A stretch of DNA of 64,000 nt. Source: Laetmonice hystrix. Lineage: Eukaryota. The position numbers were made by a program, and so were the translations under genes. Under the pieces are notes generated by a model, which was not told the origin of the DNA, ran no database searches, and saw only the letters and a program-made list of their open reading frames with translations. This document shows, one piece after another, positions 26,501 to 29,500 of this stretch. Numbering within the stretch: the first letter of the stretch is position 1; the number at the start of each line of letters is the position of its first letter. The DNA is taken from assembly GCA_965235115.1 (NCBI GenBank), contig OZ249436.1, positions 3,102,001-3,166,000 of the forward strand. The letters are read 5' to 3'.

Positions 26501-29500
26501 CATGCATTGCCGTTTGTTTCCTTATTTCCTAACCTTGGGAAGGTACACATGAGAGGATTCCGATCTACCTGGAGTACTGGTGTTTTGATTAGGTTCAGAT
26601 TTCAGAGAGCTGAGGTAACTGTTACATTGAACTGTGAACAGAGTTCATATTACACGGTATACGTGGTGGTGACTAGGATTAGTTCACAATTAGCTGGAGA
26701 AGGATTAATTACGGAGAAAACATGTTCTGACACATCAAGTCGAGCTCCGTACACGAGATTCGCCAACTCCTAGCTTCTGTTACCGGCGATGAACGATTTC
26801 TTCCACGGTCCGGGGATGGCACATTTAACCTAACTATACGTCTATATATAGCCTTATATAGACCTGCTCGATAGAACCCGCGTAGTTGAGAAGACGTGAG
26901 TGAGTAGAGGAATGATTGACACCACTCATACTGACGACTGACAGGACCATGGCGAGTTGTCTCATTCAGAGGTCGGCAGTGTCCAAACCTGCACTGCCTG
27001 CATTTACTGCCATCTCAGCTTGCATGGTTCTGAACAGATGAACTCTACCAGGGCCCAGTTTTTCACAAATTTTCAACTTGAATAAAGCTTACTTAAATAA
27101 ACTAACAGGCTTCTGATTGGCTGCCCTAAACAGACCAGCCAATCAGAAGCCTGTTAGTTTACTTAAGTAAGCTTTACCCAAGTTTAGAATTTGTGAAAAA
27201 CTGCGCCCAAGAGCAGGTTAGTGATGCAAGAAGCTGGTCCCCTTTTAACCCATCCAGGGGCATTACTAAGGTCTGGTTGGGGTTGGTGTGAGGGAGGGAG
27301 GGTTGGTGAAGGGATTATGTTGCTTTATTCACCCAATAATATAGAGAGAAGTCTGCCAGGGTTAACAGCAGCACCCAACCCGGACGGGTCCCTCCCCGGA
27401 TGTGCCACCGTCTCTCCCGTCATTCATTGTATGGTATACTTCCATTTCCGGTCACCAGGGGGCAGCACGGGCCGACCCCGGACTCCAAGCAGTGTCAGTG
27501 TGATTATGGCACTCTGGCGTCTCTCAGTCACCCCGACATGATTCTTACGTTGTAATTTATTAATTGTTTGCCACGATATTCATCCTCAGTGATAGATATT
27601 TTTCACGGCGTGTTCCACTTTACTGCCTACTAGTTAATTGGATGGCATAGAGTTACACGCTAGGCTTACTGGTGCCAATGTTATAAGCTCAGAGCCGTTC
27701 CAAATCACGTTACTTTTAATTAGCATCAAGACCAGTTATTTTTCTCCGACGTGATTATGTTGCCAGAGTTCCTAGAATTGGTCCAAGCTCTGTTATATAC
27801 GAAGACCGCCTGTCTGACATACGTGTTTCCTGAGACGTAATATCTAATTTGTCTGCCATGTCGGCTCTGATCAGTAGGAGACGGGTAATATCAGAGTAGT
27901 TTAGGAGTGAATGACCTTGGTTGACGTAGAATGACCTTGGCTGACGTTTGTTACTGATTGGATCCTCTTGTGTTTCAGACCCAGCAGTGAAGGCCAAGGC
28001 TGAACGTTACCTGAGTTTGTTAATGATCGGAAACCTCTTGTGTTTCAGACCCAGCAGTGAAGGCCAAGGCTGAGCGTTACCTGAGTTTGTTAATGATCGG
28101 AAACCTCTTGTGTTTCAGACCCAGTAGTGAAGGCCAAGGCTGAGCGTTACCTGAGTTTGTTTCTGATTGGATCATCGTGTGTTTCAGACCCAGCAGTGAA
28201 GGCCAAGGCTGAGCGTTACCTGAGTTTGTTAATGATTGGAAACCTCTTGTGATTCAGACCCAGCAGTGAAGGCCAAGGCTGAGCGTTACCTGAGTTTGTT
28301 ACTGATTGGAAACCTCTTGTGTTTCAGACCCAGCAGTGAAGGCCAAGGCTGAGCGTTACCTGAGTTGCTCGCCGGAGGACATAGATGTTCTCCGCGATGT
28401 CATCTCGCAGCAGGACCTGACCGGTGTGGAGGAACTCATTGTCAAATGTCAGGGTAGTCCTCGTTCTAGTCCCAAACGTTCACATCCTGACCACACACAA
28501 TCTTCTCCACCAGTCGGCGCCACCAGCGTGGCTGCCGCCGCCGCAGCATCTACTTCCGGTGGAACCATGCCGAACAGGATGGATGGGGATGGACAGCACC
28601 AGAGCAGGACACGTACGCACGCTCACCCACACCAGCATACTTCTCCCGCACCGGTGCACTCACACATCCCACGCATGCGCAATGACACGCATGCACATGC
28701 TCACTCCAAGGGCTACCATGAAAATGGATTTGACGCTTCATCGAAAAACGGCAAAAACACCAAAGGATTTGAGACCTTTGTCATGACAGGTGATATGATT
28801 ATACGGACTACACCCTCATTACATAAGAAGGAGATGGCCCGTAAACCATCATCAGAAAAGACAACAAAGAAAGGGGGGTCAGGGGGCTCGTCCCCAAGCA
28901 AAATTGCTGAGCCAAGTAGTAAAAGTGCATCAGACTCAAGTAAGCAACAAAAAACCCAGGGATCACCGTCAAAGAAACACAAAGCTGAAAGCCGAATACC
29001 AATGCCCTCAAAAAGTCGGATACCAAAAGCACCTTCACAACGAGGCTCCCCGAAGCATTCAGTCAAAGAGTCCCCGAGGCCGACTCGAGCACAGCTTGCT
29101 TTTCCTCGTGGTGACAAAACATCAACTGCCAACATTGCTAGTCCAGAATCAACCCAGATTGAGAATCTGGAGTTGGTCAATAATAATGTCATCTCTGACG
29201 TGACCAAAGTGGATGATACTGTTGAACCTCAGGAGATAGAACCGGTTCTGCAAGAACCCCCACAAGAATTCCCAGAAGAACCCCAAATAGAACAAACCCC
29301 ACAGCAACTTACATCAAAAGATGAACCCCTAGAACAGGCAATTGCTGAAACACCAGAGCCAGAGCCATGTGTCCCAGAAGCAAATCTTGTAGAGCCAGAA
29401 CTCAAGGATTTCTGTTGGGTCCAGCCAGAGCTTGACTTTAGTGAACCACAAGTTCAACCTAAAACAGTGGCCCAACTCGAGTCTCCAGATCCAATCTTTG

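Follow-up and report, generated by a model that had tools for sequence, protein, structure and literature searches.

Six minisatellite units spanning the giant-exon acceptor of Efa6, a candidate splice-junction mirage

How is Efa6 spliced when the acceptor of its giant exon stands six times in a row? At positions 27946..28366 (+ strand) of the window, by which we mean the whole stretch of 64,000 nucleotides analysed, six head-to-tail units of 69 to 70 bp bridge the junction between an intron and the giant exon of this gene. When TRF was run on the window, a single array was returned at this place (27941-28366; period 70, 6.1 copies, 93% matches), and its score of 738 is far beyond chance. Each unit consists of an intron end and a 36-nt exon start, and AG acceptors open at 27979, 28049, 28119, 28188, 28258, and 28328, with the same exon start after each. 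A sequence-only reading of this DNA had described the six-fold amplification of the acceptor, the unit length of 69 to 70 bp, and these six positions, all of which TRF and the sequence bore out. The intron part, given there as about 34 nt, is 34 nt in units 2, 3, 5, and 6 and 33 nt in units 1 and 4, while the GTTTGT said to follow every exon piece directly does so in five of the six.

Efa6 and the array at its giant exon

The gene name Efa6, also assigned from sequence, was correct, as homologues and the Pfam families Sec7 and PH_9 agree on it. Exons were mapped by tblastn with nine homologues. In a search of proteins of 546 to 1740 amino acids, 9 of 45 candidates matched, none being identical to the window; the named relatives were PH and SEC7 proteins from a nemertean, annelids, and molluscs, and the C-terminal region was similar in sequence to that of named EFA6 proteins (tblastn). 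By these relatives, the gene belongs to a lophotrochozoan, probably an annelid. With donor 10054 and acceptor 28328, a 12-exon model spanning 5527-58163 reads 1481 codons and one terminal stop. Three of the five exon pieces scanned against Pfam gave hits, with Sec7 (E=3.6e-16 and 1.2e-8) followed by PH (PH_9, E=1.1e-27). An exon of 22 residues reached E=1e-4 with PDZ_6, under the curated cut-off, and matched the Lineus PDZ by tblastn; the first PDZ exon was not found within the 64-kb window. The order PDZ-like, MTED-like, SxIP, Sec7, PH is as expected for EFA6/PSD Arf GEFs from the sections of PMC6884004 available. That family concerns the host gene only, and the same sections mention no link to such a repeat.

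The exon upstream of the array ends the PDZ region (10000..10053, + strand) and has a phase-1 donor at 10054, after which an intron of 18,274 nt follows. This donor (10053|10054) matches the consensus at 9 of 9 positions and has the correct phase, and the upstream-exon junction agrees with Lineus protein P0004 in alignment A1. The giant exon (28328..31286, + strand; 2959 nt; donor 31287) is placed between introns of 18 and 20 kb. It holds a conserved N-terminal segment, an MTED-like motif, two SRIP motifs, and the start of Sec7, and when searched against Pfam it matched no family. The residues encoded at 28768..28809 (+ strand), labelled here as MTED-like, form the most conserved block of alignment A1. 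This block, with the MxG core that the available part of the EFA6 paper gives, is invariant in seven of seven alignment rows, the comparison being with that core and not with the published 18-residue consensus itself. Between the array and this block lies a conserved in-frame Met (28567..28569, + strand), which is present in several alignment rows; the annotated Paralvinella protein P0013 begins at the equivalent Met.

In the Lineus protein, the segment carried by the repeat units occurs once and follows straight on the PDZ, and the relatives P0003 and P0006 likewise have a single copy of the junction segment. From these three proteins, one copy is the ancestral state, and the junction of PDZ and exon is conserved out to a nemertean. 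Among eight candidate proteins of 30 to 545 amino acids, none was a hit carrying the first residues of the exon. A metagenome scan gave 24 loci from distant relatives, and in none of these was there a segment homologous to the exon start or an array with a unit of at least 20 bp within 300 bases of the start of the open reading frame; arrays made up 1.6% of their 135,564 bases. These relatives are too distant for dating the array. In 23 of the 24 (L001-L023), the frame opens at most 35 codons before the MTED-like stretch and has a Met near its start, which suggests a shorter, PDZ-less start of the giant exon in those lineages.

The units, all on the + strand, differ at 1 to 8 positions, mainly within the intron part, and the CAG at the boundary is kept in all six. 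Unit 1 (27946..28014; acceptor 27979) has a CTGAT branch-like motif, 12 pyrimidines of 17, and a 47-nt AG-free zone. By these features it looks like the best competitor of unit 6 (28294..28363, 70 bp; acceptor 28328), in which CTGAT stands at -23 and 10 of the 17 positions are pyrimidines. In the 70-bp units 2 (28015..28084; acceptor 28049), 3 (28085..28154; acceptor 28119), and 5 (28224..28293; acceptor 28258), the branch-like motif reads ATGAT in place of CTGAT, and an alternative TTAAT motif is retained. Unit 3 also carries an exon-piece change of Ala to Val, and unit 5 has a purine in its pyrimidine tract. Unit 4 (28155..28223; acceptor 28188) is 69 bp long, has an interrupted pyrimidine tract, and contains no stop in the exon frame. 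Through the C-to-A change, units 2, 3, and 5 gain ATGs at 28023, 28093, and 28232, which would be upstream ATGs for any PDZ-less transcript that uses an earlier acceptor.

At the left edge of the array (27941..27948, + strand) lies a GTT identical to that at 28364-28366; CTGA precedes both, with one extra base on the left. This GTT microhomology was likely the seed of the first duplication. TRF also reported a 20-bp tandem duplication adjoining the array (27909..27947, + strand).

Reading on from the first five acceptors in the phase of the upstream donor reaches a stop after 30, 30, 43, 20, and 30 codons, respectively, the one from unit 4 being located in unit 5. All five stops fall 2937 to 3216 nt short of the next donor. 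Of the six acceptors, only 28328 leads through the giant exon without meeting a stop, reading 986 codons in the window haplotype. Stops within about 30 to 45 codons had been foreseen for all five upstream copies; this was right for units 1, 2, 3, and 5 and too long for unit 4. The further claim that only the last copy is productive stands as a statement on reading frame in the DNA of this haplotype, and contigs of the sequencing runs hold a stop-free 69-bp unit. Stops that far before a junction would mark transcripts for NMD under established rules.

Copies and haplotypes in the sequencing runs

Contigs of four sequencing runs (X1 to X4) were placed on 27300-31500. All four belong to one sample and study, possibly the window's own, and X4 covered 14 of 30 bins, the array not being among them. 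In three of the four runs, contigs were continuous through intron and exon with no splice joints, which says nothing on expression.

The sequence-only reading had allowed that the repeat might be an assembly artefact of a single copy. In the contigs, one copy is very unlikely, given the breaks, the depth, and a path from unit to unit. The flanking contigs of X1 and X2 end at 27993 and resume at 28337, exactly where the repeat starts and finishes. A core contig of 54 letters (28313-28366) had a depth of 547 in X1 and 410 in X2, far above the flanks (60-69 and 42-71, respectively), although contig depth is not copy number and depth ratios vary between runs. A 75-letter contig reads from an exon piece through an intron piece into an exon start, with 27 letters on its short side against a bridging rule of 31; its path is absent from a one-copy gene. 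The base differences among the units also speak against an artefact. For it, one may cite that no contig spans the array, that no listed record has 31 letters on either side of a unit-to-unit junction, and that the runs may come from the window's own sample. An artefact at a locus with one copy is almost certainly not the explanation.

The contigs of X1, X2, and X3 also contain a unit that lacks one base at 28308 (contig depth 309, 210, and 56), which is 69 bp long and without a stop in the exon frame. In record 17 of X3, which has a loose end at 27962, the first copy differs, being of the unit-6 type and standing on a divergent flank. Since neither variant is found in the window, unit composition varies between haplotypes, and the one sample seems to combine two haplotypes that differ in unit type. 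Within the giant exon, several substitutions and a 6-base deletion at 28829-30934 differ among the contigs of the runs; this is a heterozygous, variable disordered region.

Acceptor choice and its precedents

Duplications of this type have been described in amphioxus as mirages (BflGb6, BflGb9, Adh3, troponin C, and PGBD5; PMC3087553 and PMC3902484, as far as their available sections go), those of PGBD5, Adh, and troponin C having been added by PMC3902484. In BflGb6, the intron 3' end and exon start are repeated, with 6 and 3 units on two haplotypes, and RT-PCR suggested regular splicing (excerpts of PMC3087553). Like the mirages of these excerpts, the Efa6 array has head-to-tail copies of intron end and exon start, most with AG, and the amphioxus unit lengths of 10 to 160 bp include 70; mirages take donor-side and acceptor-side forms, as do the two arrays of Efa6. 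Unlike them, the array comes from a probable annelid and not a cephalochordate, and it stands before a 2959-nt exon between introns of 18 and 20 kb. Regular splicing was followed by RT-PCR in amphioxus, whereas the Efa6 array is known here from DNA alone. By its sequence features the array would be classed as a mirage, three of five defining features having been found (minisatellite duplication, a unit spanning a boundary that the 12-exon model and homologues fix, and kept splice signals) and none contradicted. The sequence-only reading had the anatomy and the premature stops right and missed the mirage precedent, the tandem-array context, and a 15-fold donor array in the same gene.

The available part of PMC2630376 describes a similar arrangement, CBS 844ins68, in which 68 bp at an intron/exon junction are duplicated, the distal site is strongly favoured, and normal mRNA results. 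CBS differs in having two copies, not six, and no unstable array, and in that a pathogenic change in its first copy is removed on splicing.

We consider it probable that the Efa6 array is a young, unstable, and near-neutral minisatellite, a mirage of which the last acceptor is mostly used. That the spliceosome ignores five decoys had been one of several proposals made from the sequence, and it is the likeliest of them. On this account, a minisatellite would have nucleated by chance across the 3' splice site of the giant exon, the first 69- to 70-bp duplication having arisen on the GTT microhomology, and would then have grown and turned over through unequal exchange or slippage. The spliceosome would mostly choose the last acceptor, which is nearest the exon body. 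Long flanking introns may favour definition across the exon and hence this acceptor, and small changes in the branch motif or pyrimidine tract may weaken units 2 to 5. An occasional upstream choice would run into a premature stop some 3 kb short of the next junction, its product going to NMD, so that the five spare copies would be intron filler without a regulatory role.

The last acceptor alone gives the conserved protein, and the 18-kb intron holds 106 other simple acceptor-like motifs. Against preference for the last acceptor, exon definition usually acts on exons far smaller than 2959 nt. Unit 1 looks equal or superior to unit 6, with 12 against 10 pyrimidines of 17, the same CTGAT, and a longer AG-free zone, and the TTAAT kept in units 2, 3, and 5 also counts against it. 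Moreover, competing 3' splice sites in human data lean upstream, and long flanking introns only lessen this lean (PMC9225289, available portion); proximity therefore does not by itself account for the last site being the only one used. Masking of the decoys by RNA structure was considered and rejected, the folding being weaker than in 100 of 100 shuffles (z=+2.62).

The features of unit 1 and the upstream lean would also suit a leaky array, in which much of the splicing goes to upstream acceptors, mainly that of unit 1, and copy number sets the dosage of PDZ-containing Efa6, the other products being degraded by NMD or restarted at Met 28567. The stops that follow all five upstream choices fit such a dosage effect, and its cost could be borne, since a PDZ-less Efa6 from the equivalent Met is annotated in Paralvinella. 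However, the excerpts cited above report normal splicing for mirages and for CBS 844ins68, the PDZ-exon junction is conserved as far as the nemertean, and nothing sets the array apart from the 35 arrays in the gene span with units of at least 18 bp. We regard a leaky array as unlikely. Tuning of full-length Efa6 against NMD products by copy number, another of the earlier proposals, found no support here.

The 69-bp units raise the question of whether other haplotypes are largely stop-free, with selection against frameshifting units favouring such alleles and upstream acceptors yielding a full-length Efa6 that gains 23-residue repeats behind its PDZ. In favour of this are the stop-free unit with the deletion at 28308, found in three runs, and unit 4 of the window, a second and different stop-free type of 69 bp. 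In the window haplotype, however, four units are 70 bp long and shift the frame, and on the other haplotype a single 70-bp unit towards the end would be enough to close it. Minisatellites commonly show one-base indels, a third of all lengths keep the frame by chance, and the four runs represent one sample. Largely stop-free alleles are a very unlikely explanation. It is also distinctly doubtful that the array is not neutral, with upstream acceptors used measurably, 70-bp alleles leading to NMD, and 69-bp alleles giving full-length Efa6 with 23-residue inserts, variable in number, behind the PDZ. If true, a splice-junction minisatellite on its way to becoming coding sequence would be segregating here, and the choice of one acceptor among many before a 3-kb exon could be followed in a natural test.

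Exon or intron gain in progress, in which the 36-nt piece serves as a phase 1-1 mini-exon through GTTTGT and adds 12 residues, had likewise been put forward from the sequence; it fared poorly here and is highly improbable. The 36 nt would preserve the frame, and the duplication lifted the junction GT from 3 to 4 consensus matches. Precedents exist in potato RdRp (PMC4974935) and in the amphioxus globin model (PMC3087553, Figure 7 legend), the latter, in the portion available, drawing intron gain much as proposed for Efa6. Against a 9-position donor consensus, however, this GT scores 4 of 9, compared with 6 to 9 for all 11 real donors of the gene, and at least 4 matches are reached by 973 of the 1425 GT sites in the 18-kb intron. 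Splicing from the mini-exon to the next acceptor would take an intron of 33 to 34 nt, and the shortest in the gene is 213 nt, although an intron that skips to a later acceptor could be long enough. The potato duplication crosses an intron-exon boundary, like the Efa6 unit; according to the accessible text of PMC4974935, a GTAAG donor was activated there and a new intron annotated, whereas the candidate donor in Efa6 is GTTTGT. Rogers-type intron gain is defined in the same text by a purely exonic duplicated segment that holds AGGT. It was rejected for Efa6, as the unit is half intron and AGGT occurs in none of the six units.

With the last acceptor mostly used, as we think probable, the array is a known phenomenon, the mirage, in a further gene, and matters little. 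What sets it slightly apart is that it precedes a giant exon, that Efa6 has a donor array to pair with it, and that in-frame units may be present on another haplotype. The array is useful as a test case, with copies that can be told apart by single bases and two haplotypes seemingly in one sample. No report of mirages in annelids was found in the literature searched, the coverage of which leaves out most subscription journals, so the extension of mirages to annelids may be unpublished.

Tandem repeats in the gene and the window

Tandem arrays are abundant in the window, with 57 merged arrays covering 22,096 of its 64,000 bases (34.5%). Within Efa6, they occupy 19,707 of 48,191 intron bases (41%) versus 79 of 4,446 exon bases, and the gene span holds 49 arrays, of which 35 have units of at least 18 bp. 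Two of 23 splice sites, acceptor 28328 and donor 53234, lie inside arrays. Under a null based on array coverage, 9.4 sites were expected (P=0.0008 for 2 or fewer), and many junction arrays may have been purged through avoidance; this null is too harsh, since arrays grow after birth. Under a second null, in which each of the 35 arrays of unit length 18 bp or above was seeded by a single unit, 0.75 sites were expected, with a P of 0.17 for 2 or more. Neither null shows enrichment of junction arrays, and two is near random seeding.

The second junction array lies on the donor side (53226..53707, + strand), where donor 53234, at the end of a Sec7 exon, has been copied to 15 GTAAGT sites in units of 30 to 36 bp. 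The first GTAAGT site fits the frame, an immediate stop is met on reading past it, and the same three exon bases are preserved in three copies. A direct counterpart is the 37-bp VNTR of F7 intron 7 (PMC1557585), in which, according to the excerpt available, the first unit spans the splice site and the identical pseudo-sites are silent. In F7, on the donor side, the first site wins by 5'-3' scanning; in the acceptor array of Efa6, the last site must win.

Several other repeats lie close to splice sites or within introns of the model. An array at 51756-51967 begins 4 bases after donor 51752, and another at 57590-57849 finishes 30 bases before acceptor 57879. At 7537-9312, intronic in the model, 24 copies of a 74-bp unit each carry a pyrimidine tract and AG, followed 9 bases on by a CAG/GT donor-like site. 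The arrays at 18692-21354 (43 bp, 61 copies) and 23173-23661 (29 bp, 17 copies) are the source of most acceptor-like motifs in the 18-kb intron. Upstream of the gene model, an exon-like piece at 999-1140 stays open for about 46 codons between a pyrimidine-rich AG and a good donor. It had no Pfam hit and no match to EFA6 homologues, and it may come from the 5' end of Efa6 or from another gene. Degenerate telomere-like CCCTAA repeats occur in an intron at 52542-52822. At 50088-51348, short A-rich and T-rich low-complexity repeats are clustered in a mirror arrangement, as seen in GC skew and units, and this is possibly a foldback-like element.
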